DNA of 64,000 nt from Dehalococcoidia bacterium (GCA_034423175.1 DAOUJA010000057.1:2800-66799), one strand, 5' to 3'; shown: positions 23,374 through 44,149, counted from the stretch's first letter. Program-made: numbers and translations. Notes: a model not told the origin generated them from the sequence alone.

Positions 23374-23463
23374 GGGGTTACGGGGACACTATACGCCAGA
23401 AAGGAGCGAAACGCGCCGCCGTCGGATGACGGGAACCTGCCGAGGCGTGGGCCGCCGGACGCC

Positions 23464-23493
23464 CTGGGTTCCAGCCTCCGCTGGAATGACGGG
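23464..23493 (+). repeat. REP-like hairpin, family A variant
   Basis: ctgggttccagcctccgctggaatgacggg (stem TTCCAGC/GCTGGAA), in the gap between the SDR and the RdhA-like gene. Confidence 0.45.
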
Positions 23494-23497
23494 AGCT

Positions 23498-24295
23498 CTA
23501 GCGGCGGGCGCCGCCGTTGGCGTCGATGACTTCGCCGGTGATGTAGCCGCCGTAGTCGGAGGCGAGCCAGACGACGGTGCCGGCGTGCTCCTCCGGCTTG
23601 CCGAGGCGTCCCATCGCGGAGACGCCGCCGGGGCCGTAGGCCGCGGAGGAGTCCTCGCGCCAGCGGGGGCGGTGCGGCGTCTCGATGCCGCCGACGGCGA
23701 TGGCGTTGACGCGGACCTCCGGCCCCCAGGCCTGCGCCATGGAGAGCGTCATGTTGATGACGCCCGCCTTCGCCGCGCCGTAGGCGGGGGAGTCCGGGCT
23801 CGGCGCGCGTCCGGCGACCGAGGCGATGTTGATGATGGCGCCCTTGCCCTGCTGCTTCATGGCGGGGACCGCCGCGACGCTGCACTGGAACATGGTGACG
23901 ACATTCACGCGGTACGCCTCGATGAGGTCGTGCTCGGTCAACTCCATCAGCGGGCCGGCCTTGAACGTCTCGCCCCAGCTGCCGCCAACGACGTTCACGA
24001 GGACGTCGATGCGCCCACACTCGGCGAGGACGCGCTCGACCATGGCGTCGACCTGCGCCTTGTCGCGGACGTCGGCGGTGACGCCGAGGGCGCGTCGTCC
24101 GAGGGCCTCGACGGCTGCGACGCCGTCGCTCACCGGCGCGTGGGGCCGGGCGCGCCCGTCCGTGACTTCCTCCGGCTCGCGGGCGACGACGACGATGTCG
24201 GCGCCGTGCTTCGCGAGCTCGGTGCAGCAGGCGAAGCCGAGTCCCTGCGCTCCGCCGGTAACGATGGCCACCCTGCCAGTGAGGTCGAAGTCCAT
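23498..24295 (-). CDS. short-chain dehydrogenase/reductase (FabG-like)
   Basis: VAIVTGGAQGLG, NIASVAG, YGAAKAGV. Confidence 0.8.
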   Translation of the reverse strand: MDFDLTGRVAIVTGGAQGLGFACCTELAKHGADIVVVAREPEEVTDGRARPHAPVSDGVAAVEALGRRALGVTADVRDKAQVDAMVERVLAECGRIDVLVNVVGGSWGETFKAGPLMELTEHDLIEAYRVNVVTMFQCSVAAVPAMKQQGKGAIINIASVAGRAPSPDSPAYGAAKAGVINMTLSMAQAWGPEVRVNAIAVGGIETPHRPRWREDSSAAYGPGGVSAMGRLGKPEEHAGTVVWLASDYGGYITGEVIDANGGARR

Positions 24296-24412
24296 GATGT
24301 GTGCTCCTTTCGGTTGCGTCCGCGTCCGTCATCCCGGGATGCGGGGGCCCCGCGGTCCGTGGCGGGGCTGAGGATACAGCACCCGGCGACACCGGCTCCC
24401 GGGCGTCGCTTC

Positions 24413-25159
24413 CTAAGGCGGAGCGTCTCCTTCATCGCGGGCAATCCGCTGGCCCCGGAACCAGGCGAGGACCGTCAGGGCGAGCAGTAGGGCCGCGCCG
24501 CCTCCTACCACCGCCACGGCCACGGACGACCCGTCCAGCAGGCCGTCGTACCTCGCCAGAACCGCCGCAACCGCCACCATGAGGCCGGCCACCAGCAAGC
24601 CGGCAACGATGAGTCCGGCGAGCATGAGGCCCTCGTGCCGGAGGACCAGCCGTCTCTCGCCGGGGTCCACCCCCTGCGACTCCATGAGGCGTCCCTGCCG
24701 CATGATCCCCGTGATGCGATGCACGGCGATGAGGCCGACCAGGCACGCGACGAAGAGCGCCGCGTCCAGGTAGACGGAGCGGTCATCCACCAGCCCCTCC
24801 TGGAACTCGAGCAGTTCATGCCATCCGATGCGGTTGTGCGACCAGGCCGGAAAGGCGTGAGGCACGGAAACCGCGAACGCGACGAGCCAGAAGGCTATGC
24901 GGTCGCGACCGAGGGCCTGAAGCACCCGGTACGCGGCAAGACCCGCACCCGCCACAACCACCGGCTGCCACGGGACGAAGCGCAGGAGCAGCTCGTCCGC
25001 TCTCTCCACCCACGAGGTCACTCCCACGTTCAGGATGAAGCCTGTGTCCCACAGCACGTAGACGGCGAGCAGCAGCAGGGCGGCAATGACCGCCGACTCC
25101 ACGGCGGCGAACCACGCGCTTCCGTCGCGCCGGTCCGGTCTACCGATAGGTCTCAACAT
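24413..25159 (-). CDS. hypothetical membrane protein, last gene of the MoxR/DUF58 operon
   Basis: Start moved to MLRPIGRP (CAT at 25157-25159). It overlaps the DUF58 stop by 20 nt. About 6 hydrophobic segments. Confidence 0.5.
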   Translation of the reverse strand: MLRPIGRPDRRDGSAWFAAVESAVIAALLLLAVYVLWDTGFILNVGVTSWVERADELLLRFVPWQPVVVAGAGLAAYRVLQALGRDRIAFWLVAFAVSVPHAFPAWSHNRIGWHELLEFQEGLVDDRSVYLDAALFVACLVGLIAVHRITGIMRQGRLMESQGVDPGERRLVLRHEGLMLAGLIVAGLLVAGLMVAVAAVLARYDGLLDGSSVAVAVVGGGAALLLALTVLAWFRGQRIARDEGDAPP

Positions 25160-26471
25160 GCCGCACCAACACCGACGTGAACTCCTCCCGAGAAGGCTCC
25201 CACTCGATGACCGACGCACCCGCGTCACGAAGGTCCCTGGCGACCAACCGCGTTTCCCACGCGGTCAGCCCCAGTCCCTGCGTCGTGTCCCGGGACCCGT
25301 GCGGGGCCACGTGCACCACCCGGACCGGGTTGTTCCGCCCGGGGAGCGTTCCGAGCGACGCAAGACGCGTGACCGCCGTCTTGAAGCGGTCGAAGGAGCC
25401 CGCGGCCTCCCCGGGCCTTGCGTAGTGGACGTCCAACCGCGTGATGACGTAGACGGCCGGGTCCAGCCGGAGGAGGAAGCTCTTGCATCGTTCCACGGCC
25501 TGCAGGAGGTCTTCCTCGGGCGGGCCCGGTCTGAGGCCGGCCAGCATCTGTATGAGGCGGTTGAACTGGCGCTTCCCGGACTCGGGCGTCAGCAACTCGC
25601 CCCTGCCGTCGTAGCTGTTGTAGGCATAGGCGCCGAGCGTGGAGCCCTGGGCGAGGTAGTACTGCGCCAGGGTGCCGGATGCCTCCACCGTGTTCTCCAA
25701 CGGATTGGACAACGGGACGCCCACGTCCATGTAGTCCGCCATGTCCAGGAAGATCCAGACCCCTTTCTTCGCCTCCGGCTCCACATCGTTGACCAGCGGG
25801 AGGTTGTCCGCCCTCACCCCCCTCGCACTGGCCTTCCAGTTGATCCGCTTGAACGGGTCTCCCGGCTGGTAGGGCCGCAGCTCCCGGAACTCGTCCGTGG
25901 CCGCTCCCGTCCTGGAAAGGTCTCCGAGGTACCGCCCGTGCCTGGTCACGGCGCGGACCGCGTTCAGACGGGTGATGCTACGAATGCGGGGCACCACGGA
26001 GACCTGGTACGCGGAGCCGGATGAACCGGCCGTGCCCCGGTTGACGCCGAAGGGGGCGCGCGATTCCCAAGCGGTCTCCCGCAAGGCGAACTGCCCCCGC
26101 TTCGAGAACTGCACGCGGTATGAGACGTCAGCGGAGCGGCCCCCCGGCCACTTCCACACCACGCGCAGGTTGCTTCCGCTCACCACCCGGGCCTCCGGCG
26201 GCAGATCGTCGTGCACGAAGATGGCGCCGATGCCGCCGCGGGCCGTCAGCCGGCGCTCCACGGTGAGCGTGTCGCCGACCCAGCACGCGACCTTCGCCAG
26301 GCTTCGGGTCACGACTATGCCGGACGGCGGGGGAAGAGCGGTCGACAGGAGGGCCGAGACGAGGAGGAAGACCGCGCCGACCAGCAGGACGAGGTTGCCC
26401 AGGACGAACCCCGCCACCAGGATGACGAGGGAGACGGCAACCCAGCTCAGTTGCGACGGCTGTTGCTTCAC
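25140..26471 (-). CDS. DUF58 (vWA-like) protein
   Basis: FRELRPYQPGDPFKRINWKASAR...VWIFLDMADYM signature with an N-terminal TM hairpin. Likely GTG start at 26471, 14 nt after the moxR stop. The track start at 26531 would overlap moxR by 47 nt. Confidence 0.8.
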   Translation of the reverse strand: MKQQPSQLSWVAVSLVILVAGFVLGNLVLLVGAVFLLVSALLSTALPPPSGIVVTRSLAKVACWVGDTLTVERRLTARGGIGAIFVHDDLPPEARVVSGSNLRVVWKWPGGRSADVSYRVQFSKRGQFALRETAWESRAPFGVNRGTAGSSGSAYQVSVVPRIRSITRLNAVRAVTRHGRYLGDLSRTGAATDEFRELRPYQPGDPFKRINWKASARGVRADNLPLVNDVEPEAKKGVWIFLDMADYMDVGVPLSNPLENTVEASGTLAQYYLAQGSTLGAYAYNSYDGRGELLTPESGKRQFNRLIQMLAGLRPGPPEEDLLQAVERCKSFLLRLDPAVYVITRLDVHYARPGEAAGSFDRFKTAVTRLASLGTLPGRNNPVRVVHVAPHGSRDTTQGLGLTAWETRLVARDLRDAGASVIEWEPSREEFTSVLVRHVETYR

Positions 26472-26484
26472 TCCAACACCTATC

Positions 26485-27459
26485 TCACCCGGCCTCGCCG
26501 GGCACGGGCACCTGCGACAGGACCTCCTCAACGACGAGGCCGCCCTGAACGCCCTCCAGCGTGTCCTCGATGTTCAGGATGATGCGGTGGGTGAGCACGT
26601 CCGAGACGAGCATCTTGACGTCGTCCGGAACGACGAAGTCCCTGCCGTGGACGAGGGCCATAGCGCGCGAGGCCCTGAGCAGGGCCAGGCCTCCCCTCGG
26701 ACTGACGCCCACCGCCACCCTGGCGTGTTCGCGGGAGAGCCTGACCAGCTGCGTGATGTAGTCCACGATGAGCCGGTCCGTGTAGACGCCGGTCTCCACG
26801 AAGCGCTGCAACTCCACGAAGCGGCGCACGTCCACCGCCGGCTGTATGTCCGCGGTGGGGTCGTCCTTCTGCCAGTGGATGCGCCTCAGCAGGATGTCGT
26901 TCTCCAGGGCCGCATTGGCGGGATATCCCGCCGAGAGCTTCAGCAGGAAGCGGTCCAGCTGGGCCTCCGGAAGCGGATACGTGCCCTCCTGTTCGATGGG
27001 GTTCTGCGTGGCGATGACCACGAAGGGGAGCTCGAGGCGCCGCGTCACGCCGTCGATAGTGACCTGCCGCTCCTCCATGGCCTCCAGGAGCGCGGACTGG
27101 GTCTTCGGCGGGGCCCGGTTGATCTCATCGGCCAGGAGCACGTTGGTGAACACGGGGCCGGGCATCATCTGGAACGTCGAGTCCTTCTGCCTCCAGACGT
27201 TCATCCCCAGGATGTCCGACGGGAGCAGGTCCGGCGTGAACTGGACGCGCTTGGTGTCTCCGCCTATGGCCCGCGCGAAGACCTTTGCGAGGAGCGTCTT
27301 CCCCAGGCCGGGGAAGTCCTCGAAGAGCACGTGACCGTTCGCCAGGGCCGCCGCGAGGAGCTTGCGGAGCAGGAGGCGATTGCCAACGAACACCTCGGCC
27401 ACGCGGTCAATGATCTGTTCGCAGGACAGGCGAGCCTGCTCCAGTTCTTTCTCATTCAT
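26485..27459 (-). CDS. MoxR-family AAA+ ATPase
   Basis: LFEDFPGLGKTLLAKVFA (Walker A), VLLADEINRAPPKTQSALLEAMEERQVT (Walker B / sensor), ATQNPIEQEGTYPLPEAQLDRF. Confidence 0.9.
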   Translation of the reverse strand: MNEKELEQARLSCEQIIDRVAEVFVGNRLLLRKLLAAALANGHVLFEDFPGLGKTLLAKVFARAIGGDTKRVQFTPDLLPSDILGMNVWRQKDSTFQMMPGPVFTNVLLADEINRAPPKTQSALLEAMEERQVTIDGVTRRLELPFVVIATQNPIEQEGTYPLPEAQLDRFLLKLSAGYPANAALENDILLRRIHWQKDDPTADIQPAVDVRRFVELQRFVETGVYTDRLIVDYITQLVRLSREHARVAVGVSPRGGLALLRASRAMALVHGRDFVVPDDVKMLVSDVLTHRIILNIEDTLEGVQGGLVVEEVLSQVPVPGEAG

Positions 27460-27566
27460 GGGTGAGCACCACCCTGTCATCGCCAGGCATCGTTCTCAAC
27501 AGCATAGCCAACCTCCTTGCAAGTGGTCGCGGGCCTAGGCGCACCGCATCCCGGTCCGTCCATGAA

Positions 27567-30062
27567 TCACTGAAGGCTCCCCTCGTGTCCGAGCGCCGGC
27601 CCACGCGACGGGGCAGGCCCCGACGGCACCGGGGCCTCGAAGATCGACGCGACCGCCTCGTCGACCAGGTCCTGGCGGCGCAGCGCGGCGCCAACCCTCG
27701 TGTTGGACCTGCTCCGCCACCGGGTGAGCCACTCCAGGAAGGGGTCCGCGGTGTCCAGCAGCGAGAACCAGCGGTCTACGGCTTCTTCAGGGCGGTCCCC
27801 ACGCTGGCAGTGGGCGACGATGAGGGCCACGGCCAGCGGCTCCGGGTCCGTTCCTCTCTGTACGTACGACGCCCCCGCCCTCCGCACGTCGTCCTGACGC
27901 ATGCGTTCGAGTTGCGGTGCAGAGGAGGCCAGCGCCCAGCCCGCCGCATCCAGGGCATGTTCCAGCGCAGCGGTCCTCGCCGCCGTCCTCCGTTTCCTGC
28001 CCAGAACGTTCCACGCCAGGGGCGTGACGGCTCCACGGCGGAGGGACCGGCAGACCGCCGCCATGGCATCCGCGGAAACGTCACTTCGGTAGAGCAGCCC
28101 CAGCAGGTACACCCACAGGGGCCGCCAATCGCCGTGGTCCACGAACCGGCGCCGCATGGCGTCGGTCAGCGCGGCGCGCGGGTCCGCCTTGCTTTCGAGC
28201 ACCTGCCGGTGGTGGGACCAGTCGGCCCAACCCGGTCCCGGAGCTTCGCGGGCACCGGCGACGACGCGCAGCCTGTTGACGACGTTCATGAGCACCGCCA
28301 GCAGCAGGACGAGGAGCGCGGTGTACTCGTAAAGAGCGGCAAGCCACAGCATCTCGTAGACGACGGGACGCAGCAGCAACACGTAGAAGGCCAGGGCGGC
28401 ACCGAACGTGAAGCCCCGCACCTGAGAGGCAGCGAGCCATCCGGCGACGTCGGCCACCGCCGGGTTGGAAGAAGAGGAGGCGTACGGGGCCAACCGGGTC
28501 AGCGCCAGGGAGAACATGCCCGCCGTGGCAACGGCACCGCCGAAGGTGAAGCCATGTCCGAACGAGGACAGGCCGGAGGCCGTGAGCCAGGTGAGACATC
28601 CCACGGCAAAGTAGCTCACGGCGGAGAGGATGGGCCGGTAGCGCAGGAAGGGCTGCCCGCTCAGGACCCTGGGCAGGAGGACCATCGCGGTTGCAGCGAA
28701 CGACAACCACGCGATGGAGTACCGGGCTTCGTGGAACCCTCCCAGGAAAGGCAGCAGGTCCTCCCCGAGTCCTGTCGTTCCGGGGCGGTCCAGGAGCACG
28801 GCATTGGCCGCCGGAAGGTGAGCGAGGGCAGCCCCGACGACGACGGCCAGGCCCGCGGCCACGGCCAGGGCGCCCAGCACCCTCGATGCGTTCGCCGTCA
28901 GCAAGGCATACCGCTGCGGGACGTCGAGCGTCGCCACGTTCCGCAGCACCGTCGCCGCGTAGGAAAGGAGAACCGCGGCGAGGAGCGCAGTGAGCATCCC
29001 GGAGACGTCGACCCCGAACGCCGTCGAGAGCAGGCCGCTGCCGGAGAAGACGACGTACACGACAGCCAGCGCCGCGAGGCGCCCGATGGGGGTCCCCAGA
29101 ATGCGGGCGACGCCGGGCCGGAGCACCCCCCAGTAGTGGACGAGTGCGAAGGGAAGCAGCACGGCCAGTACCTGCACAACCGACGGGGAGTAGAGCACCG
29201 CCAGGTACGATGGGTCCACGGAGCCCGGGCCCACCGCGCCAGGGCCTACGGACGCGCTCTCCGCGGCGAGGGCCAGCACCGCAATGGCTATCCACAGCGC
29301 AACAATCCATGCAGCCTCGGTCACGAGGAGCGCCCTGCGGAGGCGGGGCACGCGCGCAGGCGGGCCGACTACCAGGGCGCGCCGAATGACCGAGGCTGCG
29401 TACGACAACCCCACCGCGAGGCCAACAGCCAGCAATGCCCAAGCCCCGCTCAAGGCGAAGGCGGCAGAGAGCGCACCATCGACCCCCAGCAGGGCATAGG
29501 CAGCGCCGAAGGCCGCCAGGTGCACACGCGGGAAGCCGACAACCGCGGCTACGCTCGGGCGGACTTCCGCAACCGCCCGAGCTGCGATGAACGGGGCCAG
29601 GAGCAGGATGCCCCAGGCCGCGAGCGAGTCGAAGCCGCGCAGGTAGGGCGACAGGGAAGCGACATCCGGGACCCACGGAAGACCAGACACCAGAGCCGGC
29701 AGGTCCGATGCGCCCGACAGCAAGCCCAAGCCCAGCGCCGTCCAGCCCAGGTCCGTCAGCAGCCGATGAGCGACGGGAAGCACTTCCGCGAGAGGCAGCA
29801 GGCGCACTCCCCCTCTGCCGACCCGCACCCTCAGGGTTACCCGTTCCGCGAACTCACTTCCGCGCATCCACAGGGCCAGCCTGCCCAAGGCCAGCAAGAG
29901 CCCGCACAGCGCCACCGGCAGAGCCATGAAGCTCAAGTCCAGCCGCAACAACCGGGAGAGCGGGCTGTCCGCACCCCACAGCAGCACAAGCGCCACCAGA
30001 GCGCCGCCTGCCAACAGTGCGGCGGCCAGGTCCGGGCGCCGGACGAGCACAGCGTTCCTCAT
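27567..30062 (-). CDS. 831-aa polytopic membrane protein with ~250-aa soluble C-terminal domain, family unknown
   Basis: Start moved to MRNAVLV. Its ATG (30062-30060) overlaps the giant gene's TGA (30061-30059) as ATGA. The first ~570 aa carry roughly 16-20 hydrophobic segments, followed by an Arg/Ala-rich helical tail. Confidence 0.6.
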   Translation of the reverse strand: MRNAVLVRRPDLAAALLAGGALVALVLLWGADSPLSRLLRLDLSFMALPVALCGLLLALGRLALWMRGSEFAERVTLRVRVGRGGVRLLPLAEVLPVAHRLLTDLGWTALGLGLLSGASDLPALVSGLPWVPDVASLSPYLRGFDSLAAWGILLLAPFIAARAVAEVRPSVAAVVGFPRVHLAAFGAAYALLGVDGALSAAFALSGAWALLAVGLAVGLSYAASVIRRALVVGPPARVPRLRRALLVTEAAWIVALWIAIAVLALAAESASVGPGAVGPGSVDPSYLAVLYSPSVVQVLAVLLPFALVHYWGVLRPGVARILGTPIGRLAALAVVYVVFSGSGLLSTAFGVDVSGMLTALLAAVLLSYAATVLRNVATLDVPQRYALLTANASRVLGALAVAAGLAVVVGAALAHLPAANAVLLDRPGTTGLGEDLLPFLGGFHEARYSIAWLSFAATAMVLLPRVLSGQPFLRYRPILSAVSYFAVGCLTWLTASGLSSFGHGFTFGGAVATAGMFSLALTRLAPYASSSSNPAVADVAGWLAASQVRGFTFGAALAFYVLLLRPVVYEMLWLAALYEYTALLVLLLAVLMNVVNRLRVVAGAREAPGPGWADWSHHRQVLESKADPRAALTDAMRRRFVDHGDWRPLWVYLLGLLYRSDVSADAMAAVCRSLRRGAVTPLAWNVLGRKRRTAARTAALEHALDAAGWALASSAPQLERMRQDDVRRAGASYVQRGTDPEPLAVALIVAHCQRGDRPEEAVDRWFSLLDTADPFLEWLTRWRSRSNTRVGAALRRQDLVDEAVASIFEAPVPSGPAPSRGPALGHEGSLQ

Positions 30063-33000
30063 CTGCCGGCCTCCATCACCGCACTCCATGCCCGGTACAT
30101 CGCCTCGTAGTGCCGGCGCGCGATCGGGTGCTCGCTGTAGTCCGCCTCCTCGAACCTGGAGATGAGTTCGTCGAGCGCCTTCTGGGGGACCGGGAGCCCC
30201 CGGGACACCAGGATGAGCTCCACTTCCCGCGGCGTGGAGCGTTCCGTCACACCCCCGGTCGTCTCCTTCGCCCACTCCCAGAAGAGGTTGTACAAGCGAA
30301 CGATCTCCTCCCGGAAGTCCACTACCCGAAGGATTCGAGACTCGGAGGAGGGAAGGTAGTCGTAGTCGCCGGCGAACTCCGCGGACACCGGATACTCACC
30401 GGGCTCCGCACCGGTCCAGCCGAAGGTGTAGGCCCCGTCGTTGCCAACGACCGCGAGTTGCGACGGAGCATCGCCGGCAACAGCCACCTCGACTATGGCC
30501 CCGGCAACGGCACGCCCCTCCTCGTCGCTCACGTTCACGGTGATGCGCACCTCTTCCCCAACCCCCCAGACGTCCGCCAGGTCTTCCGCCTCCTTCCGGA
30601 ACGCGATCCACAACAGGACCGGCCGGGGCGCCGGGCCCGCATCGTCCTCGAGGCCCGTACCTTGGTCAGCCGCGTCAGGACCCGCGGCCGGCCCGGCCTC
30701 CGCACGCCTCCAACGCGCGAGCACCGCCAGCGGCCTCACCCTGAACCTCCTGCCGGAGTATGCGGCGGCAGCGGCCACGGCAAGGAGACCGGGGATGCCC
30801 GCCCAAAGGAGCCAGTTGATCCCGGCGGGCGTGATCGCGCCCTCCCAGAAGTACGGCGTGCCGAGCGGAGCGTGCAGGTCGTCCCCGGCATAGGTGAATT
30901 CCACGAAGCTGCCGTGGAGGGCCTCCTCGGCCGGCACCGCAAGCTCCAGCATCGCCACCCCGGACTCGTCGGTGGTGGCGTCCACCCCCTGGCTCGATCG
31001 CACGGCCGCCAGCGGTATACCGGTCCCGGTGTCGTCCAGGAGCGCCACCTGGAGCAACGTCATGCCGCCGGGGCGCACCCTGCCCACCGGGGTCACGATG
31101 AGGTTGGCAGCGGACCTGACCACCAGCGTTGCCGTGGCGCCGGCATCCAACGCCGGGGCGTCGATGACGAGTTCGGCGGTCCCCAGCGGTCCATCCCCCG
31201 GCACCGGGTACGTCTGCACGAAGGCGCCAACGTCGTTGGACCTGAACACGAGGTCGGGACCGACGTTCAGTTCGGCGCCGGGCACGGGATGAGTCCCCAG
31301 CAGGACGGTCCCGCGGAGGACCGCCCCGGCGCCGCGCACAACGGGTGCCAGCGGTTCCACCAGGACCCGGGGAAGCCCGACCGCAACGTCCAGCGTGGCA
31401 CGGCTGGAGGCCAGTTGCTCCGTATCGTCGAAGACCACCTCGACGCTCATGGCGGACTCATGCGGACCGCGCGCGGAACCCTCGTCGAAGACTGCCCGGG
31501 CGTCCCACGCGAACCTGCCTTCAGCATCGGTCGTCAGAGAGAGGGGCTCACTGCCGACCACGCGCACTTCGGCGTTCGAGACCGGGCTTCCGCCACTCTC
31601 ACGCAGGATGCCCGTGAGCCGGAAGCCCTCGCCATCCCTCACGACGACGGGGCCGTCGAGCGCCAGGACGGTGGGCTCCAGCACCTCGAAAGCGGCCTCG
31701 GCGGAGGCCGGACGGACGAACTCTCCCCCGTCGAAGCGGCCCGTGAGCGTATGGGGGCCTGTGCTTCCGAAGGACGGATGCCGGTATCGAAACGTCCCAT
31801 CCTCACCGACGTTCACCGTGACAAGCTGCTCAACTCCGGCGGCCTCTATGGTCAGCTCCACGGCGCCGGTCGGCGAGAGCGTATCCGACGTAAGCGCGCC
31901 CTCGAACGTCGCTCCATCGCCGCGCTTCAGCCTGAGCGGCCCCTCCAGCGTCAGAGCTACGGCGTGGAGGGCTTCGGCGCGAGCCGTTGCGCTGGAAGCG
32001 AGCACCGAGCCCTCGCCCCGGTACGCGGCGTTGACGGTGAACTGCCCGGGACTCGACATCATCCCGGCGACCTCGAACCAGCCTTCCGCGTCCGTGTTGA
32101 CCGACTGCTCGGGGTTGCGGCCAACTCTCACGCCGAGAGGCTTCCCCGCGAGAGGACTCCCGTCGGCCCCGCGAAGGACACCCGCCACAGGGAACTCCTC
32201 ACCTATCACCACGGAATCGGGGGCGTAGACCATAACCTCGGTGGGCAGGACGACCTCGAAATCCAAGCGGGCGGTGTTATCCAGCAGGAACTCCTCCCCC
32301 CGAATCTCCACCTCCACCCAGTGTCGTCCAAGCCGCGAGAAGGACTCGGAGAACGTAAACCGGCCCGACGAGTCAGTCACCACAGAAGCCGTGGCGTCTC
32401 CGTCGAACGTTACTGCGAGCTCGCGCGAAACCACTCCCCGTCCGGAGTCTTCGATCAGCATACCCTGGAACACGGCTACAGCGTTCCGGACTACTTCCGC
32501 CGGGCCACTGAGCTCGATCCTGTTTCCGGAGAAGACCTTGATGTCAGGGTCGCTCCAGGACTCATTGAACCGGTCGTTCCCGACGGCGCGGGCCAGGAGC
32601 TGGTAGCCGCCCAGTTCCAGATCCGCGGGCAGTTGCACCTCGGCCCGGAAGCGCCCCGCACCGGACGTGGTCGTCCCGATAATCGTGCCGCCGTGGTCCT
32701 TGGTCTCGTTGACGTAGATCTCGACCGTCATACCGCTGACGTTCTGTCCGTCGACGGTGCGCACCGTTCCTCCCACCACGAACGGCGTCTGACGACGGAC
32801 CTCCGCGGGCCAGAGGGTGATGTCCGTTACGGTGTCAACGAGGGAAGGCGGCGCCACGCCACCGCTCTCGTCGATACCCCTGACGACGGGGATGGGCCTG
32901 ACCGCAGGCGGAATGTCCGTCACCCTTGACGGGGCTCCGCCGGACGCAGTGGGGTCAAAACGCACCCAACCGATGCCCTCCAGCCCGACCTCTGCCCATT

Positions 33001-36000
33001 GATGCGCCTGGTTCGAGTAGACGACGATCGCTTCGGCAGAGGGGGAGGTGACCCATCCCGAGACGATCCTGGCGGGTATGCCCACGGACCGGGCCATCAC
33101 GACGAATGCGCTGCTGAACTGCCCGCACGTTCCCTGGCGCGTGTCGAAGAGGAACCAGTCCACCGGATCGCGTCCCGAGGGCGCAATGCCCGCGGCGAAG
33201 TTGTCTGCGTACCTGTAGGCGTAGCGCGTTTGCAGGTACCGTTCCAGCGCCTCAGCCTTCGCATACGGAGAGTTGTGGGGACGCGTGATCTCCTCAGCCA
33301 GCTGCGCGATCCGGTCAGGGAGGCCCGGAGGCAACCGGGTATAGATGGTGTCGGCGACGGCAGCGGCGGCCTGGTACTGCTGGAGCGAGTAGAACAGGAC
33401 ATCAGAGGTCCAAAGATACCGGGCTCCCGGACTTGGGGAACGAAACGTGGCGCTGAAGGGATAGTAGAACCCGTCGAGATCGACGTCCTGCAGGTCGAGG
33501 GACGTGGGCAATACTCCGAAGGGCAATTCGTCGAACACGCCGTGGGAGCTCAACTGGACCCGGTCGGAGAAGGCGGTATGCGGGTTGCTCCGGAACCCGA
33601 AGAGCGACGGGAAGGCCTGCCTTTCAGAGGGGAGCGCGCCGAAGGCCCCCGTGGCATCATCGTAGACGGCGGCTGTGGCAGCCAAGACACTGCTTCCGGC
33701 CGCGTACGGGACCTCTACGGGGTCCAGTTGGCTCCAGCCGCCGTCCGCGTATACGTCTCCCGTAGAGGTCCGCAGATAACTGGTGTGAGCGGCGCCCTGC
33801 ACCGTGAAGACCGGGATACGCGGCGGCTGTGCAATCTGGCGGGTTGTCGTTCCCTCGGTGGAGAGACCACCCCCGGAATGCATGATGAGCGCCGCTCCGT
33901 TCTCCAACCGGGTCACACCGGCCCCGAGCTCCTCGAGAGCACCGAGCGCGGCGTCCCTGGCCGCCTCGTCTCCCTGCCCAAGCGAGGCGAGTCCCGACGC
34001 CGACAACAACTCTCCCAAGCCCGTGCCGCTCCCCTCTCCACCTGTGCCCGTGCCATCCCCCTGCCCGCCCGTGCCGGCGCCGCCCTCCAGTCCGGTTGTG
34101 TCTGCGCCCAGTCTCTCCAGGGCTTCCCGCGCAGCATCCCGGACATCCGCAGCGGGATCGGCCAAGGCCCTCGTCAAGGCGGGTATCGCCCCGGTAAGCC
34201 CCCGCTCCCCCATGAGCTGGGCTGCCGCAGCCCTCTGGGACGGGTCCGCTGCGTCTTCGAGGGCCGACAGGAGGGCATCGAAGTCCCATCCGGCCAGGCC
34301 CTCCGCTGCCGCGTTCCTGACGTCAGGCGATCCGTCATCGGAACGGGCGTCGAGCAGCGCTCTCAGCGCTGCGCCGTCCCCGATCTCAGCCAAGGCCAAG
34401 GCCGCCGCCGTCCTGACATAGGCGGACTCATCCGTAGCCAAGGCTCTCAGCAATGCTTCCAACGCCATGGTGTGGGAGTACTTTCGCTCCCCCATGAGCT
34501 GAGCAGCCGCGGCTCTCTGGAGCGGGCTCACCGCGGTCTCGAGGACCAGGACCAGTGCGTGGGAGTCCCACCTGGTCAGGGCCTCCTCCGCCGCGGCCCT
34601 GACTTCAGCCGATGCGTCGTCGGCCCGGGCGTCCAGCAGCGGCAGCAGGGCGACGTTGTTCCTGATCTCCCCCAAGGCCAGTGCGACTTCCGCTCGAACC
34701 AGTGAGACGGGGTCAGAACCGAGAACGGGGACCATCTCCGACGCGGCCGCCGGGTACCTTCGCTCCCCCATGAGCCGGGCCGCCACGGCCCGCTGCTCCG
34801 CGTCCCCGGCATTCAGGAGGACGTTCAGCAAGGCGGCGAAGTCCCACCCTTCCAAGGCCTCATCCGCCGCCGTCCTGACGTCAGCCGATGCGTCGTCGGA
34901 CCGAGCGCGCACCAGCGGCAGCAGGGCGAGGTCGTTCCTGATCGCGCCCAAGGCGAGCGCAACTTCGGCGCGCACCTCCGGGGCGGGGTCCGAGACGAGG
35001 ACGGGCACCATCCTTTCCGCCGTCCAATCGGTCTCGAGAGCGCCCAGAGCCCGGGCCGCGGCCTCCCGGACGGCGGCGTCCGAGTCTGCTTCCAGCGCCC
35101 GCAGCAGCGGCCCTTCAGCCTTGTCCTTCCCCAGGGCGGCCAGCGCATCGATAGCCTCCACCCTGACCCGGGCGTCCTCATCCGAAACCAAGGCCTGTAT
35201 CAGGGCGTCCACCGCCTCAGGGTCGGCGAGCACTCTCAACCCGAAGGCCGCCGAGGCCCTCATGAGGGGGTCTTCATGGTCCAGCAGGACCCCGATGGGC
35301 CAGTCGAGGGCCAGCACGCTCAGAGCAGCCTGCGCAGCGCGGCGGGCACCAGGTTCCAGGGCGTTGTCTATCTCCTTGAACAGCAGGCGCAGCGCCTCCG
35401 GGTCGTTCAGATCGACCCTGAGCGCAGCCACCGCGCCCCGTACCTGCGGCGCAGCACTGGCGGCCAGTTCGTCGAGCGCGGTCTCCAGCGGATGGTTGAC
35501 GTCCGTGTCCGTGAAGGCGTCCCTGGGCAAGGGGTCGACGGTGACCCAACCGAGGCCGTCCAGGGCGATCTCCGCCCACTGGTGGGCCTGGTTCCTACGG
35601 ACCGTTTGTGTTTCCTCCCGCCTCGCTACGACCCAACCGGACACGGCCCTGGCCGGGACCCCGGCCGCCCGGGCGAGCACCACGAACGCGCTGCTGAAGT
35701 TGCTGCCAGCGCCCACGCCGTGGTCGAAGAGGAACCAGTCGACCGGATCCCGGCCCGGAGGCGGCCGGGTCTCCTCTTCCGTGCTTGCGACGCCGACGGA
35801 GTACTCCTCCTGGAGGTGTACCTGCAGCAGGCGGGCCTTCAGGTATGGAGAGGCGACAGCGGCGACCCGCTCAGCCAGCTCATGGACACGCGGCGACAGG
35901 CCATCCGGCAGCTGCAGATACGTCCCGTCCGCCACCGGAGGCGCGTCAATCTTCTGCCCCAGCGCGAAGAGCGGAAGGGTGGACTCCGTCCGATAGGCGG

Positions 36001-37120
36001 ACACCCTATCGTCAGCTGCCAGGGTCTGGCTGAAGGGGAAGTAGGTCGCGGTAGTGTCGATGCTGTGCAGGTTCGCGGGTACCGGGAGCACGCCCGCCGC
36101 GAGCGAGTCCGCCCCTTCGATGGGCGAGACCACGACGTGGTCGACGAATTCGTGGAGCGGAGCTGCCGTCGGCAGATGGAGCTGCCCAGCCAGAGGCGCC
36201 AACGCATCAGGAACAGAGGCGTTCCCTTCCAGCGTAACGGCGGCGGGGTCCAACTGGCCCCACGTTCCTTCAGTGTACGCGTCGCCCGTGGAAGTCCTGA
36301 GATACCTGGTGTGGACAGCGCCCGTCACGCGGAAAACCGGAGCGTCGCCGGGTAGAAGAGGCTGCAACGCCGTGATCTCCGACAGCAGAGACGTGTCCGC
36401 GGGCACGTTGGCGGCGGTCGTTGCCGATGCCGCCGGCTGCGCGGTCGACGCTCCCCCCGCCTGGCGGAGGCCATCAACAACCGCCGCGAACCCGGCGGGG
36501 ACCTCCAGGAGATGGGTGCGGGGAAAGAGGAGCAGCCCATCGATGGGCTCGGTGTCCAGGAAGCCGAAGACGCCCGCGGCGGCCAGCCAGACCACGAGCG
36601 CAAGCGCCAGCAGTCTCCAGTTGAGTATCCCGGCGATGGCGACAGAAAGGAAGAACGCCGCCAGGAGGACCAAGCTCTCCGGCTCCAGGTAGATGCGCTG
36701 CACCATGTGCTCGTCGTAGGAGACCGAACTGCCCAGCGTGCCGGAGAAGGCGAGGTACGCTCCGGCCACGATCAGGGCAAGCGCAGCGAGCACGCCCATC
36801 GCGAGGGACCACGAAGGTCGGAGGGAAGCCCTTCCCAGCGGCCATGGGACGGAGACCACCATAGCGGCGGCCGCAAGGACGATGGCGACGGGCAGTACGA
36901 GGAACTCGAGCAGGCCGACACCACTGGGTACGCCGAAGGTCCTCTCCTGGGAGGACGCGGCAGCCAGTATGTCGCGGGGGCCCGTGGACACCAAGGCGAC
37001 GACGAACTCGAGCACCAGGAAGAAGCCTGCCAGTGCGGCGAGCAGCAGGAGGAGGAGACTGGCTTGACGCGCGGGGCCACTGACCAGCGGCCCCGCCGGC
37101 ATTGCGGTCAAACTACGCAT
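30059..37120 (-). CDS. giant (2353 aa) TgpA-like transglutaminase-family membrane protein
   Basis: Domain layout in window coordinates. N-terminal ~5 TM helices (36551-37063). Transglutaminase-like module 1, DPVDWFLFDHGVGAGSNFSSAF...NQAHQWAE...GWVTVDP (35528-36349). HEAT-like repeats (34106-35323). Gly/Thr linker. Module 2, DPVDWFLFDTRQGTCGQFSSAF...NQAHQWAE...GWVRFDP (32948-33823). About 7 beta-sandwich repeats (30851-32833). TM helix INWLLWAGIPGLLAVAAAAAY (30755-30829). An 8th beta-sandwich, then a DUF4129-like tail ...STPREVELIL...FEEADYSEHP... Confidence 0.85.
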   Translation of the reverse strand: MRSLTAMPAGPLVSGPARQASLLLLLLAALAGFFLVLEFVVALVSTGPRDILAAASSQERTFGVPSGVGLLEFLVLPVAIVLAAAAMVVSVPWPLGRASLRPSWSLAMGVLAALALIVAGAYLAFSGTLGSSVSYDEHMVQRIYLEPESLVLLAAFFLSVAIAGILNWRLLALALVVWLAAAGVFGFLDTEPIDGLLLFPRTHLLEVPAGFAAVVDGLRQAGGASTAQPAASATTAANVPADTSLLSEITALQPLLPGDAPVFRVTGAVHTRYLRTSTGDAYTEGTWGQLDPAAVTLEGNASVPDALAPLAGQLHLPTAAPLHEFVDHVVVSPIEGADSLAAGVLPVPANLHSIDTTATYFPFSQTLAADDRVSAYRTESTLPLFALGQKIDAPPVADGTYLQLPDGLSPRVHELAERVAAVASPYLKARLLQVHLQEEYSVGVASTEEETRPPPGRDPVDWFLFDHGVGAGSNFSSAFVVLARAAGVPARAVSGWVVARREETQTVRRNQAHQWAEIALDGLGWVTVDPLPRDAFTDTDVNHPLETALDELAASAAPQVRGAVAALRVDLNDPEALRLLFKEIDNALEPGARRAAQAALSVLALDWPIGVLLDHEDPLMRASAAFGLRVLADPEAVDALIQALVSDEDARVRVEAIDALAALGKDKAEGPLLRALEADSDAAVREAAARALGALETDWTAERMVPVLVSDPAPEVRAEVALALGAIRNDLALLPLVRARSDDASADVRTAADEALEGWDFAALLNVLLNAGDAEQRAVAARLMGERRYPAAASEMVPVLGSDPVSLVRAEVALALGEIRNNVALLPLLDARADDASAEVRAAAEEALTRWDSHALVLVLETAVSPLQRAAAAQLMGERKYSHTMALEALLRALATDESAYVRTAAALALAEIGDGAALRALLDARSDDGSPDVRNAAAEGLAGWDFDALLSALEDAADPSQRAAAAQLMGERGLTGAIPALTRALADPAADVRDAAREALERLGADTTGLEGGAGTGGQGDGTGTGGEGSGTGLGELLSASGLASLGQGDEAARDAALGALEELGAGVTRLENGAALIMHSGGGLSTEGTTTRQIAQPPRIPVFTVQGAAHTSYLRTSTGDVYADGGWSQLDPVEVPYAAGSSVLAATAAVYDDATGAFGALPSERQAFPSLFGFRSNPHTAFSDRVQLSSHGVFDELPFGVLPTSLDLQDVDLDGFYYPFSATFRSPSPGARYLWTSDVLFYSLQQYQAAAAVADTIYTRLPPGLPDRIAQLAEEITRPHNSPYAKAEALERYLQTRYAYRYADNFAAGIAPSGRDPVDWFLFDTRQGTCGQFSSAFVVMARSVGIPARIVSGWVTSPSAEAIVVYSNQAHQWAEVGLEGIGWVRFDPTASGGAPSRVTDIPPAVRPIPVVRGIDESGGVAPPSLVDTVTDITLWPAEVRRQTPFVVGGTVRTVDGQNVSGMTVEIYVNETKDHGGTIIGTTTSGAGRFRAEVQLPADLELGGYQLLARAVGNDRFNESWSDPDIKVFSGNRIELSGPAEVVRNAVAVFQGMLIEDSGRGVVSRELAVTFDGDATASVVTDSSGRFTFSESFSRLGRHWVEVEIRGEEFLLDNTARLDFEVVLPTEVMVYAPDSVVIGEEFPVAGVLRGADGSPLAGKPLGVRVGRNPEQSVNTDAEGWFEVAGMMSSPGQFTVNAAYRGEGSVLASSATARAEALHAVALTLEGPLRLKRGDGATFEGALTSDTLSPTGAVELTIEAAGVEQLVTVNVGEDGTFRYRHPSFGSTGPHTLTGRFDGGEFVRPASAEAAFEVLEPTVLALDGPVVVRDGEGFRLTGILRESGGSPVSNAEVRVVGSEPLSLTTDAEGRFAWDARAVFDEGSARGPHESAMSVEVVFDDTEQLASSRATLDVAVGLPRVLVEPLAPVVRGAGAVLRGTVLLGTHPVPGAELNVGPDLVFRSNDVGAFVQTYPVPGDGPLGTAELVIDAPALDAGATATLVVRSAANLIVTPVGRVRPGGMTLLQVALLDDTGTGIPLAAVRSSQGVDATTDESGVAMLELAVPAEEALHGSFVEFTYAGDDLHAPLGTPYFWEGAITPAGINWLLWAGIPGLLAVAAAAAYSGRRFRVRPLAVLARWRRAEAGPAAGPDAADQGTGLEDDAGPAPRPVLLWIAFRKEAEDLADVWGVGEEVRITVNVSDEEGRAVAGAIVEVAVAGDAPSQLAVVGNDGAYTFGWTGAEPGEYPVSAEFAGDYDYLPSSESRILRVVDFREEIVRLYNLFWEWAKETTGGVTERSTPREVELILVSRGLPVPQKALDELISRFEEADYSEHPIARRHYEAMYRAWSAVMEAGR
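34181..35011 (-). repeat. three tandem ~276-nt (92-aa) coding super-repeats of HEAT-like units
   Basis: Giant-protein aa 704-795, 796-888 and 889-980 align end to end (MVPVL.SDP...VRAEVALALG.IRN..ALLPL..AR.DDASA.VR.AA.EAL..WD...L...L......QRA.AA.LMGER). Identical DNA strings such as cagccgatgcgtcgtcgg recur near 34610 and 34880. Confidence 0.7.
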
Positions 37121-37206
37121 AGTACACGTGCGGTCAGCGGACCATGGCAGCGAACCGCGTCCCCAGAATACGGCACCCGGCCTTCTTCACGCGAGCGGAG
37201 CAGTCC

Positions 37207-38367
37207 CTATGCGTCCCTGGCGGAGGTGGGGCCGACTTCACCCTTGCAGTAGGAGATGAAGGCCTTCATGCGGCAGGTGACGCCGTTCTTGTCCAGCTCT
37301 CCCTCGAAGATCTCGTGGATCCTGGGGTCCTCGTCCTGGTATTCGATCTGGTAGCCGCCCTCCTTGAAGCTCTGGTCCGCGCCCTGACCGCGGGGGACGG
37401 CTGCGCGCAGGCCGTGGGTGCCGGGCGTGAGCGCCATGTAGCGCGCCCGCCGGGTGCCGGAGTTGAAGTGCTGGTGGTAGGTGCCGTCGCTCGGCACGAT
37501 GACGAGCGAGCCAACCTTCCAGTCGGCCTTGCGGATGTCGGACATGTCGTCCTTGGTCCACAGGAGCGAGAAGCCGGCGTCTCCGCTGAGGAGCACGAGG
37601 TTGGCGCCGGGGCCGTGGCGGTGCGCCTTCTTGTAAGTGCCGACGGGGAACTCGGAGATGTGGGCCTTGGAGAGGTTGCCGGCCATCTCGAACATGGAGT
37701 TGATGCCGCCCGCTCCGCGCTCGTTCCATGCGTAGAGGGCCATGTCCGGAGCGTTGGGCATGAAGTTGGACGCCCAGATGCGGCGGGTGTAGAGCTTGCC
37801 GTTGCCGCTGAAGAAGTCGTCCTCGCCGCTGTAGCGGCTGGAGAACGGGTAGTCGCACTGGAAGATGAAGTCGTTGTCGGAGAAGAGGCGCATGTTCGCC
37901 GGAGCGGTCGTGACGGAGAGGTAGCGGGCGGGCTCAGAGCCGCTGCCGTTGAAGTGCTGGTACCAGCAGTTGAGGGGGATGGAGAAGAGGCTTCCCTTCT
38001 TCCACTCGAACGTCTTCTTGTCCTCGCTGCCCTGCGGCCAGATGCTGGTCGCGCCGCGGCCGGAGACGATGTAGACGTACTCCTCGTAGACGTGGTGCTC
38101 GGGCTCCGAACTGCCGCCGGGGTCGATCTCGACGATGTGGGTGTCGTTGGTGAGGACGTGGTAGGGGATGTTGATGACGGCGCCCTTCCCGCCCTTGCGT
38201 TCCCACGGGCCGAGCTCGACGTTGGCGATGTCGTCGAAGGCGTAGTCGACGATGACCTTCACGCCCTCGGCCTTGAGCCAGTCGGCATAGGGGTCCGGTA
38301 TGGCGAAGTCCTCGAGTCCGTCGGGTGTCGGCGCGTACTTGATCGCCGCATCTGCGTCGGTGGTCAT
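37207..38367 (-). CDS. bicupin protein, gentisate-dioxygenase-like (paralog 1 of 3)
   Basis: N-cupin GGSSEPEHHVYEEYVYIVSGRGAT and C-cupin YKKAHRHGPGANLVLLSG...YHQHFN. C-terminal IEYQDEDPRIHEIFEGEL is shared with the paralogs at 45801..46919 and 54428..55525. The family assignment is tentative. Confidence 0.65.
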   Translation of the reverse strand: MTTDADAAIKYAPTPDGLEDFAIPDPYADWLKAEGVKVIVDYAFDDIANVELGPWERKGGKGAVINIPYHVLTNDTHIVEIDPGGSSEPEHHVYEEYVYIVSGRGATSIWPQGSEDKKTFEWKKGSLFSIPLNCWYQHFNGSGSEPARYLSVTTAPANMRLFSDNDFIFQCDYPFSSRYSGEDDFFSGNGKLYTRRIWASNFMPNAPDMALYAWNERGAGGINSMFEMAGNLSKAHISEFPVGTYKKAHRHGPGANLVLLSGDAGFSLLWTKDDMSDIRKADWKVGSLVIVPSDGTYHQHFNSGTRRARYMALTPGTHGLRAAVPRGQGADQSFKEGGYQIEYQDEDPRIHEIFEGELDKNGVTCRMKAFISYCKGEVGPTSARDA

Positions 38368-38705
38368 GGCTCCCTCCTATGGTCAGGTTGTTTGGGTGGC
38401 GTTGCTGGACTGTTGTTGGACAGCTCCTGGGCAAGCAGTTTCGCCGCAGTATCCACAGCAACATTGGTAGAGCTGCGCTTGGAACGCACAGGCTTGGACC
38501 TAGCGGCAAGGTCGGCGATGAACTCGCGCGCCCCGCCCATAATCTCGATGCCTATCGCGTTGCCGTCGGCGTCGTAGTCAACCACGATGCCGGGCGTCAC
38601 CTCATCGCCGTGGTCGGCAGGGCCATCCTTCCAGAACACAACGAGGCTGTTCGTCTCGGGCACGAACTCGACCTCCAAGCCTGTTATTCCGGTTCTCGTT
38701 GCCAT
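38364..38705 (-). CDS. DUF2283-family protein (putative antitoxin)
   Basis: LEVEFVPETNSLVVFWKDG...GIVVDYDADGNAIGIEIMG. Confidence 0.65.
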   Translation of the reverse strand: MATRTGITGLEVEFVPETNSLVVFWKDGPADHGDEVTPGIVVDYDADGNAIGIEIMGGAREFIADLAARSKPVRSKRSSTNVAVDTAAKLLAQELSNNSPATPPKQPDHRREP

Positions 38706-38720
38706 GGCCGCCTATGCCTT

Positions 38721-38969
38721 TCACTCGCGCTGAGGGTGATAGTCTGGGATAAAGAACGCGTTGTGTACAGTCTCTCCGTCTTCCTCGACTATCACTCGCA
38801 ACCGTCTGCCTGCCTCAAGGACGAACCCGGTCAATGCGATGCGTCCTTCAGGTTGGTCTCCAGCCTCCTGGTGATCAGGAGCAGAGAGGACGCCTTCTAT
38901 CCAGTCTTCTCTGTTTGCCTCAGGATGTTTGTGCCTGGCTATACGGTCGAAATAGGCAGTTGTCTTCAT
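38721..38969 (-). CDS. DUF4258-family protein (putative toxin)
   Basis: The 82-aa tail of track ORF 38721..39740, starting at MKTTAYFDRIARH (CAT at 38967-38969). IEGVLSAPDH...GRIALTGFV...RLRVIVEEDGETVHNAFF. The rest of the 339-aa ORF is antisense to the next gene. Confidence 0.6.
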   Translation of the reverse strand: MKTTAYFDRIARHKHPEANREDWIEGVLSAPDHQEAGDQPEGRIALTGFVLEAGRRLRVIVEEDGETVHNAFFIPDYHPQRE

Positions 38970-39089
38970 TCGAGGCCACTCTCGTTGACAGCAACCATAC
39001 GCCAGCCGTGCGGCGCGTGCACGCTTGACTGCGCCTCGCGCCGGGCGCACACTGCCGCCATAAGCAGGACGCATGAAGGAGGCGCCGCC

Positions 39090-43848: not shown

Positions 43849-44149
43849 GGCGCAGGCGATGCTATCCGCAGGAACGGCAGGGGGCAAGCGTCAGCCCCAA
43901 TAGTCAGGGTTGTCCCAGCCCACATAATGCACCAGCACTGTCGTGGCGCTCGCAATGCTGTACACGATGAAGAAGCCGCTGGCTTTACAGCCGATACTGC
44001 CGAAGCGGTACGGCAGAGGCAAGGGTATCCTGGTGCGCCGATCAGGATGCGGAGACTCCAGAATGCTGTGCACCACCGTCATCGCGCGGCCATAGTCTCA
44101 CGGCGTCAGACTGTCCAAGAAGTCTCTTGCGCGTTGTTCGAACTCCGCT

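Follow-up and report, generated by a model that had tools for sequence, protein, structure and literature searches.

An expanded five-component MoxR-DUF58-TgpA-type cassette in Dehalococcoidia

What do a MoxR-type ATPase, a DUF58 protein and a TgpA-like transglutaminase (TGase) do together? The function of this trio is still unexplained, and a 64,000-nt stretch of DNA from a Dehalococcoidia bacterium (GCA_034423175.1 DAOUJA010000057.1:2800-66799; hereafter the window, with positions counted from its first nucleotide) carries a variant that adds constraints the small versions do not give. Five co-directional minus-strand open reading frames (ORFs) at 24413-37120 encode a giant TGase, a MoxR, a DUF58 protein and two further membrane proteins, raising the questions of whether they constitute a real unit and what such a unit might do. 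The locus is an expanded five-component subtype of the MoxR-DUF58-TgpA system, of which we found no description in the literature searched. Its genes are:

30059..37120, minus strand: G1 (T), 2353-amino-acid (aa) TgpA-like giant membrane protein (ORF; Pfam Transglut_core twice, HEAT_2, Ig-like and DUF4129)
27567..30062, minus strand: G2 (U), 831-aa polytopic membrane protein (ORF; no Pfam or NCBIfam match)
26485..27459, minus strand: G3, 324-aa MoxR-type AAA+ ATPase (AAA_3 and AAA_lid_2)
25140..26471, minus strand: G4, 443-aa DUF58 protein with a GTG start and an N-terminal transmembrane (TM) segment
24413..25159, minus strand: G5 (Y), 248-aa membrane protein with ~4 TM helices (no family match)

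Conservation of the five-gene cassette

The original prediction, made from the sequence alone, had proposed these five genes, and the ORFs bear it out, including the 4-nt ATGA overlap of G1 and G2 (30059-30062) and the 20-nt overlap of G4 and G5. The two gaps that it described also exist, each one nucleotide shorter than the 108 and 14 nt it gave: 107 nt separate G2 from G3 and 13 nt separate G3 from G4, the DUF58 gene following directly after the MoxR gene. All five genes have a coding-type composition, with a G+C fraction of 0.82-0.91 at third codon positions (GC3) versus 0.38-0.53 at second positions (GC2).

A scan of one genome per GTDB species with the G2 alignment returned 63 loci. As far as the contigs reach, tblastn finds the five genes co-directional and ordered G1-G2-G3-G4-G5 at 63 of 63, and 62 of the 63 genomes are titled Dehalococcoidia, Chloroflexota or Chloroflexi metagenome-assembled genomes (MAGs). 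G2 always lies between the TGase and MoxR genes, and G5 homologs hold the same position in all cassettes. The three most divergent G2 homologs found by word search (35-49% identity) sit in giant TGase-G2-MoxR-DUF58-small protein arrays with different flanks, and the neighbourhoods of distant G1 homologs (37-39% identity) display the same five-gene order. BLASTP identities across cassettes are 30-49% for G2, 27-42% for G5, 47-73% for G4 and 71-88% for G3. Among the families flanking the 63 loci, none is common to more than seven; since no flanking family is widely shared, we delimit the unit to exactly these five genes. They are a real cassette, conserved in gene order in Dehalococcoidia far beyond chance. 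The linkage of the giant and 831-aa genes to MoxR and DUF58, which the original prediction had asked to see surveyed across genomes, is conserved at all 63 loci, and the two extra membrane proteins that it had included in the unit are conserved components of every cassette.

The one genome titled otherwise (L031; OZ241894.1, 2572905-2595373) is named 'Candidatus Aldehydirespirator sp.', a genus of Acidimicrobiia (Actinomycetota) in the NCBI taxonomy. Its G2 is 64% identical to that of the window, and upstream of the cassette it shares synteny with two Chloroflexota loci (L038 and L020), so that a labelling error is probable; horizontal transfer would be the alternative. At another locus (L007, 19806-22135), the G2 position is taken by two ORFs of 349 and 430 aa that both match G2, and a compact cassette described below (L073, 5510-7791) has 329- and 431-aa genes there. 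These arrangements could reflect a split or fusion history or, in L007, a frameshift.

A giant ORF from a MAG-type source might be an artefact of assembly or annotation, produced by a chimeric contig, collapsed repeats or fused genes; the protein does contain internal repeats, and high G+C yields long spurious ORFs. Tandem Repeats Finder (TRF) detected one 57-bp array in G1 and no other DNA-level tandem repeat, including in the HEAT-coding part, where the units are merely 36-73% identical as protein; collapsed repeats are rejected because long DNA repeats are missing. An independent Logan assembly is identical over the end of G1, G2 and the start of the MoxR gene, a 100%-identical G1 (P0040; 2347 aa, start called at M7) is present in NCBI/ENA, and GC3 stays at 0.82 along the whole ORF. 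Furthermore, at least 176 protein clusters combine Transglut_core, HEAT_2 and Ig-like domains as G1 does; the 120 clusters listed measure 2,000-3,800 aa, several of them encoded on MAG contigs of chromosome scale (2-5 Mb). An assembly artefact, which the original prediction had itself named as a possible explanation of the ORF, is excluded, and the chance of an artefact of any of these kinds is negligible. The same clusters also show that the G1 architecture is not special to one locus. Those with a source name are Chloroflexi/Chloroflexota MAG proteins called 'HEAT repeat domain-containing protein' or 'transglutaminase-like putative cysteine protease/HEAT repeat protein'. Two different homologs (P0046, 2524 aa, and P0048, 2333 aa) are both recorded with a longest contig of 3,014,901 bp; some genomes may harbour two paralogous giant TGase genes or cassettes.

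Architecture of the giant transglutaminase protein

Hydropathy and the positive-inside rule predict a TgpA-like topology for G1, with five TM helices in aa 1-190, TGase domains, a further TM helix at aa 2096-2119 that precedes an Arg-rich flank (RRFRVR...RWRR), and a C-terminal DUF4129. About 1,900 aa lie between TM5 and TM6, and the DUF4129 tail follows TM6, as had been proposed from the sequence. The regions are, from the N-terminus:

36557..37063, minus strand: N-terminal five-TM bundle (aa ~20-188; hydropathy)
35501..36373, minus strand: TGase module 1, predicted dead, G-H-D (aa ~250-540; Transglut_core 2e-19)
34106..35293, minus strand: HEAT_2 solenoid (aa ~610-1005; ~92-aa period, 4-5 units)
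32921..33847, minus strand: TGase module 2, intact Cys-His-Asp (aa ~1092-1400; best Transglut_core stretch aa 1273-1390)
30851..32803, minus strand: ~7 beta-sandwich domains, CarboxypepD_reg/Big/MG-like (aa ~1440-2090; ~95-aa period, internal repeats)
30764..30835, minus strand: sixth TM helix and Arg-rich segment (aa 2096-2119; hydropathy)
30062..30562, minus strand: predicted cytoplasmic tail, beta-sandwich and four-helix DUF4129 (aa 2187-2353)

The Pfam scan of G1 matched Transglut_core in two stretches (2.9e-48) and HEAT_2 in five (2.6e-52), along with CarboxypepD_reg, Big_3_5 and Big_1. DUF4129 fell below reporting in the whole-protein scan; when the tail was scanned alone, it scored 30.3 bits against a curated cutoff of 24.8. 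The Pfam signature TgpA_N/DUF3488 (PF11992) was not found in aa 1-540, even at E <= 10. Core 2 matches the P. aeruginosa TgpA structure 6G49 at 6.2e-15. With the DUF58 and MoxR matches given below, all four signatures expected by the original prediction were recovered in hidden Markov model (HMM) searches, and its assignment of the locus to the MoxR, DUF58 and TgpA-like system stands.

The two TGase modules are paralogous (31-64% identity). At the triad positions core 1 has G-H-D, with Gly in place of the catalytic Cys, and core 2 has C-H-D. Judged from these residues, core 1 is probably catalytically dead and core 2 competent, so that the duplication would have left one pseudo-enzyme module beside one competent enzyme. 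The enlargement of G1 by duplication and by HEAT and beta-sandwich arrays, as read from the sequence earlier, is borne out by Pfam and by internal self-comparison; the loss of the Cys from the N-terminal copy is a correction to that account. The HEAT region matches alphaRep/HEAT structures in the PDB and is joined to module 2 by a Gly/Thr/Glu-rich linker. The beta-sandwich array also has Pfam matches to MG2, DUF6795 and YtkA. Beyond TM6, a disordered acidic/Pro-rich linker leads to the tail, in which an AlphaFold2 model has pLDDT > 90 over both the beta-sandwich and DUF4129; aa 2096-2119 are modelled as a helix. In Foldseek the tail beta-sandwich, which has a Big_3_5 Pfam match, resembles CARDB and macroglobulin (MG) domains, and no top-ranked match covered the DUF4129 helices.

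We aligned every TGase core of 126 giant homologs. Two cores are present in 14 of these proteins, three in 85 and four in 27. The first core usually lacks the catalytic Cys, carrying Ser, Ala, Gly or His instead, and ~90% of the homologs retain C-H-D/E in one core or more, usually including the last. Over 124 homologs, median identity is 70% in the DUF4129 tail, 63% in the putatively active core 2, 54% in the putatively dead core 1, 44% (at about half coverage) in the HEAT array and 33% in the region preceding core 1. The most conserved parts are therefore the tail, in which the motif ISRFEEADYSEH is almost invariant, and core 2; the least conserved are the HEAT and pre-core regions. Apart from these trends, a minority of giant homologs has no Cys in any core (SHD three times, AHD three times and similar patterns); such proteins would be either Ser-nucleophile variants or fully non-catalytic binding versions.

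The predicted topology bears on the mechanism that Zhang & Aravind proposed in 2012 for the three-gene operon of MoxR, vWA (DUF58) and YebA/TgpA-like transglutaminase-like (TGL) proteins, which is described as very common in prokaryotes and unexplained: a membrane-proximal ATP-dependent degradation system (PMC3495828). [quoted passage not shown] In keeping with this idea, TGL domains resemble papain and are capable of peptidase activity. However, the TGase modules of G1 lie between TM5 and TM6, on the predicted opposite side from the Arg-rich cytoplasmic flank, the TG domain of P. aeruginosa TgpA is likewise predicted to be periplasmic (PMC3507681), and the window's MoxR has neither a signal peptide nor a TM segment. 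Because enzyme and unfoldase are thus predicted to reside in different compartments, a cytoplasmic protease is very improbable here.

Two side observations concern G1. ARAGORN called a tRNA-Leu(gag) at 34322-34399 on the minus strand, inside the HEAT-coding part; Rfam gave no tRNA there at the gathering threshold, and the call is almost certainly a spurious match within GC-rich coding sequence. Lysine, the usual acyl acceptor of transglutaminases, is scarce in the cassette proteins (0.6% of G1, 0.2% of G2, none in G5), their basic residues being Arg. Low Lys is typical of high-GC genomes. In a system built around a transglutaminase it deserves attention, and the few lysines of G1 and of surface proteins might be where cross-links form.

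Partner proteins, compact cassettes and surroundings

G2 has ~14-16 TM helices and a ~230-aa Arg-rich helical C-terminal domain, and neither G2 nor G5 matched any Pfam or NCBIfam family. Word search retrieved 39 G2 homologs, the named ones from Chloroflexi/Chloroflexota, and a profile search of 1.84 billion representative proteins retrieved 234 relatives. The invariant residues include W612, W615, H618, D627 and R629. Foldseek found no fold match in the PDB for the AlphaFold2 model of G2 (pLDDT 68, pTM 0.45; best E 0.27, TM-score ~0.1), and as modelled the protein remains a fold orphan. G2 is distantly related to proteins with a precomputed match to PF27715 'UCP019236': three of these (P0270, P0263 and P0260) gave E-values of 1e-20 to 1e-22 in the G2 profile search and of 1e-32 to 1e-42 with an HMM of the G2 family. 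Our local Pfam scan gave no PF27715 match even for P0270, and the model may be absent from the copy used; no mention of UCP019236 was found in the literature searched.

G3 matches AAA_3 (2.4e-64, 215.5 bits), AAA_lid_2 (1.9e-21) and the PDB entry 2R44 (6.8e-72). Walker A (GLGKT) and Walker B (DEINR) motifs are conserved in 61 sequences, and G3 is a canonical, apparently active MoxR. G4 matches DUF58 (PF01882; 3.1e-13, 49.9 bits against a cutoff of 23.4), has the conserved DUF58 motifs RPY.GD and NWKA, and found no sequence relative in the PDB. G5 is weakly conserved.

Where the DxSxS of a vWA metal-ion-dependent adhesion site (MIDAS) would be expected, at aa ~236-250, G4 reads D-M-A-D-Y (D-x-A-x-Y-M), and the DUF58 proteins of all 62 cassettes carry W.F.D.A.YM.VG at this site. 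We dropped the degenerate MIDAS as a distinguishing feature of G4, a haloarchaeal DUF58 compared with it being likewise devoid of DxSxS; the DUF4129-linked DUF58 group may be metal-independent.

Among the G2 relatives are proteins of ~400-430 aa that align with G2 only over profile positions ~450-715, its conserved core. In distant uncultured low-GC lineages (L073/L074, L076 and L077; contigs of 44-47% G+C), they belong to compact cassettes with the same order, T-U-MoxR-DUF58-Y, and two shorter contigs hold parts of this arrangement. Compact T is a protein of 926-1112 aa with TGase and Ig domains and a DUF4129-type C-terminal tail, compact U has ~400 aa, in some cases with the precomputed UCP019236 match, and compact Y is a membrane protein of 224-268 aa. 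HMMs of the Dehalococcoidia families match the compact proteins at 1e-32 to 1e-42 for U, 1e-93 to 1e-106 for DUF58 and 9e-12 to 3e-5 for Y, and compact MoxR is ~61% identical to G3. Compact T is colinear with G1 aa ~1037-1703 (putatively active TGase and Ig array) and 2181-2353, the Ig and DUF4129 tail with VDYREEIV...FEEADYS.H being common to both. All five components are homologous, and the window operon is therefore an expanded form of a broader T-U-MoxR-DUF58-Y system, whose compact members are likewise undescribed.

In contrast to the window, T of the compact cassettes has a single N-terminal anchor, one TGase module and no HEAT array, and U lacks the ~375-aa block of extra TM helices. 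By alignment, G1 would thus correspond to compact T with the addition of a five-helix bundle, one or more dead TGase modules and HEAT arrays, and G2 to U with ~375 aa of extra TM helices. L073/L074 encode an additional 329-aa membrane protein; for that of L073, homology to the N-terminal half of G2 was not demonstrable by HMM comparison. T of L076 has a weak precomputed TgpA_N/DUF3488 match. A homolog search with P0270, a compact U, gave five matches, and one relative is named as a protein of a 'Spirochaetota' MAG.

The compact cassettes bear on a second explanation, in which sponge symbionts would use T primarily as a giant adhesin or for interaction with their host. T would then be a 'eukaryotic-like' HEAT repeat surface protein whose TGase serves its own anchoring, and MoxR, DUF58, U and Y would be no more than chaperones dedicated to its insertion and folding. 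The HEAT arrays set the Dehalococcoidia version apart from the compact cassettes, which have none, MoxR proteins are commonly viewed as chaperones of assembly, and several carrier MAGs have isolate names (SB0664_bin, RHO1_bin, RHO3_bin and APA_bin) that we take to denote sponge-metagenome bins; TGases of the EsrD type, discussed below, anchor surface proteins. Against this, a sponge origin is suggested for several of the 63 genomes and not for most, the HEAT array is among the least conserved parts of G1 and the catalytic core and tail are the most conserved, and the compact cassette keeps all five genes without any HEAT. We consider a primary role in adhesion quite unlikely.

The surroundings of the cassette in the window are unrelated metabolic genes, with a cupin gene upstream and genes for a short-chain dehydrogenase/reductase (SDR) and Fe-S proteins downstream; gaps of 86 and 117 nt bound the five genes on the outside. 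A CoxL/CoxM-like Mo-dehydrogenase locus (40246-43890, minus strand; MoCoBD_1/2, Ald_Xan_dh_C, FAD_binding_5 and CO_deh_flav_C) lies ~3 kb upstream of the cassette, and MoxR/vWA pairs mature Mo-dehydrogenases in other organisms. We rejected a CoxD/CoxE-type maturation role because the linkage is not conserved and the flanks differ over the 63 genomes; the proximity appears coincidental. Promoter and terminator scans of the locus gave no more matches than shuffled background, and an Rfam scan of 23000-39000 gave none. The window has 61-70% G+C, and long spurious ORFs consequently occur in every frame. Plus-strand ORFs of 502-970 aa at 22982-24490, 25897-27465, 27462-30110 and 30017-32929 lie antisense to real genes, and most long antisense ORFs lack the GC3-over-GC2 signature of the five genes. 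The ORF at 25897-27465 passed a crude composition filter, yet lies opposite the MoxR and DUF58 genes. These long antisense ORFs are by-products of high G+C.

Proposed mechanism and comparison with known systems

The two most constrained parts of G1, the putatively active TGase core and the predicted cytoplasmic DUF4129 tail, point to a coupling of an enzyme outside the cell with an ATPase inside. We lean tentatively, with somewhat less than even confidence, towards a model in which T is an extracytoplasmic TGase/peptidase platform that acts on surface proteins and is assembled or switched by MoxR and DUF58 through its DUF4129 tail. We infer the following topology (by hydropathy only), protein-protein contacts, activity and substrate. 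T would be anchored in the cytoplasmic membrane at both ends, by the five-helix bundle and the single C-terminal helix, and display ~1,900 aa outside the cell. The Cys-less TGase module and the HEAT solenoid may serve as binding or scaffold elements and the ~7 Ig-like domains as a stalk, and the Cys-His-Asp module would cross-link, deamidate or cleave and trim surface proteins. On the other side of the membrane, where the model also places the body of DUF58 and the C-terminal domain of G2, the beta-sandwich and DUF4129 tail would form a cytoplasmic handle, and DUF58, as a membrane-tethered adaptor, would offer this handle to the AAA+ ring of MoxR. ATP hydrolysis could then assemble, remodel, switch or gate a T-U-Y membrane complex and in this way control the external enzyme.

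Three arguments favour a complex of DUF58, handle and MoxR: the two most constrained parts of T are predicted to lie on opposite sides of the membrane, the tail is predicted to share the cytoplasm with the conserved MoxR and the membrane-tethered DUF58, and linkage of DUF4129, DUF58 and MoxR is also seen elsewhere, with no TGase alongside. Published work describes marine Dehalococcoidia, cultured SAR202 among them, as monoderm, devoid of peptidoglycan synthesis genes and covered by an S-layer-like coat (PMC10284905, PMC10444878), so that an envelope protein is a more likely substrate than murein, and murein is unlikely to be the universal one. The ATP-driven envelope-remodelling or cross-linking machine suggested by the original prediction would be compatible with everything found.

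Several points weigh against a switched TGase platform. The lack of peptidoglycan genes is reported for marine relatives, and the window's own organism may differ; some G1 homologs have no Cys in any core, so that not every family member need be catalytic; it is unusual for an Ig-like domain to fold on the cytoplasmic side; and the cassette has no linked gene for a candidate substrate. In addition, the P. aeruginosa MoxR gene PA2875 is dispensable and tgpA essential (PMC3507681), so the ATPase may be only accessory.

A bolder form of the model, which we regard as a long shot, is a previously unrecognised machine whose AAA+ motor would work through DUF58 and the DUF4129 handle, U and Y serving as membrane stator or conduit. 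The motor would drive or gate mechanically a giant multi-TGase ectodomain, and the ectodomain would build or repair the covalently cross-linked protein coat that marine and sponge Dehalococcoidia without peptidoglycan would have in place of a cell wall. If true, this trans-membrane coat-building machine would reveal the function of the whole MoxR-DUF58-TgpA family. The locus alone reveals no new principle. It does define two further obligate membrane partners, U and Y, indicates that pseudo-TGase modules have been recruited repeatedly, and flags a very large, conserved and probably abundant surface protein, so far annotated only as a HEAT repeat protein, in SAR202-type and sponge-associated Chloroflexota, an ecologically important group.

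Signals might also travel in the opposite direction. In oral Actinobacteria, a MoxR/vWA (Esr) cluster senses epibionts, and retention of the Ig-repeat sensor EsrA on the cell requires the transglutaminase EsrD (bioRxiv 10.64898/2026.09.08.750141). By analogy with Esr or with MoxR-vWA 'ternary' conflict systems, the HEAT/Ig/pseudo-TGase ectodomain could detect a ligand or attacker and signal through the TM helices and DUF4129 to DUF58 and MoxR, which would trigger a response. In the Esr pathway, which includes a TGase and an Ig-repeat surface protein, MoxR-vWA pairs relay a signal from the surface; the ectodomain is modular (2-4 TGase modules) and evolves much faster than MoxR (37-72% identity across cassettes for G1 versus 70-98% for G3); and G3 has a weak match to bpMoxR (PF20030; 32.8 bits, cutoff 27). 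Over the same region, however, AAA_3 scores far higher. No output domain, be it a kinase, FHA, transcription factor, toxin or other type, is encoded in the cassette, and conservation does not extend into the flanks; the five genes and their neighbours lack a beta-propeller sensor, a Ser/Thr kinase or FHA protein, a toxin and a nuclease, and PADLOC matched no defence system apart from a generic HEAT model. The strongly conserved catalytic triad of the last core also favours an enzymatic output. We judge an outside-in sensor unlikely, though worth keeping in mind.

Like the Esr cluster and the PFNA cluster of Bifidobacterium (pkb2, fn3, aaa-atp, duf58 and tgm; PMC8430577), the window cassette encodes MoxR, vWA/DUF58 and a TGase together with an Ig/FN3-repeat surface protein, and in those clusters the TGase is implicated in holding the surface protein on the cell. 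It differs in that the Ig array and the TGase are fused in one polypeptide, U and Y are added, and a Ser/Thr kinase, phosphatase, FHA protein and beta-propeller sensor are missing; neither a pkb2 kinase nor a separate FN3 gene was found in the five genes or their neighbours. The literature searched contained no transglutaminase tied to Dehalococcoidia, SAR202 or sponge Chloroflexota.

The closest likeness is to the MoxR-DUF58-TgpA system, of which the yeaC-yeaD-yebA operon of B. subtilis is a further example. P. aeruginosa TgpA (668 aa in the legend of its TMHMM plot, 688 aa in the text of the same paper) begins with five TM helices within aa 1-180 and continues with a TG domain at aa 180-544, predicted to be periplasmic and transglutaminase-active in vitro, before a sixth TM helix and a tail (PMC3507681). 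The window locus likewise encodes MoxR, DUF58 and a membrane TGase together, and its TGase has the same frame of five TM helices, TG domain, TM helix and tail. In contrast, this TGase is ~3.5 times larger, within the three- to fourfold excess estimated from the sequence, and adds a putatively dead TGase module, a HEAT solenoid and ~7 Ig-like domains. Its gene comes first, not last: the P. aeruginosa order is PA2875-PA2874-tgpA (PA2873; PMC3507681), whereas TGase-U-MoxR-DUF58-Y is kept in 63 genomes, in agreement with the prediction that the effector-like protein is encoded first. U and Y are extra conserved membrane proteins, the TgpA_N/DUF3488 signature is not detected in G1, and the host class includes lineages reported without peptidoglycan.

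A more distant parallel is found on the haloarchaeal plasmid NZ_CP095398.1 (Natribaculum luteum), where genes for a MoxR-type AAA protein, DUF4129, DUF58 and then a small hypothetical protein are adjacent. There DUF4129 forms a protein of its own, the stretch has no annotated TGase, the ATPase gene lies on the opposite strand and DUF58 shares only 26% identity with that of the window. This cluster supports a general DUF4129-DUF58-MoxR partnership.

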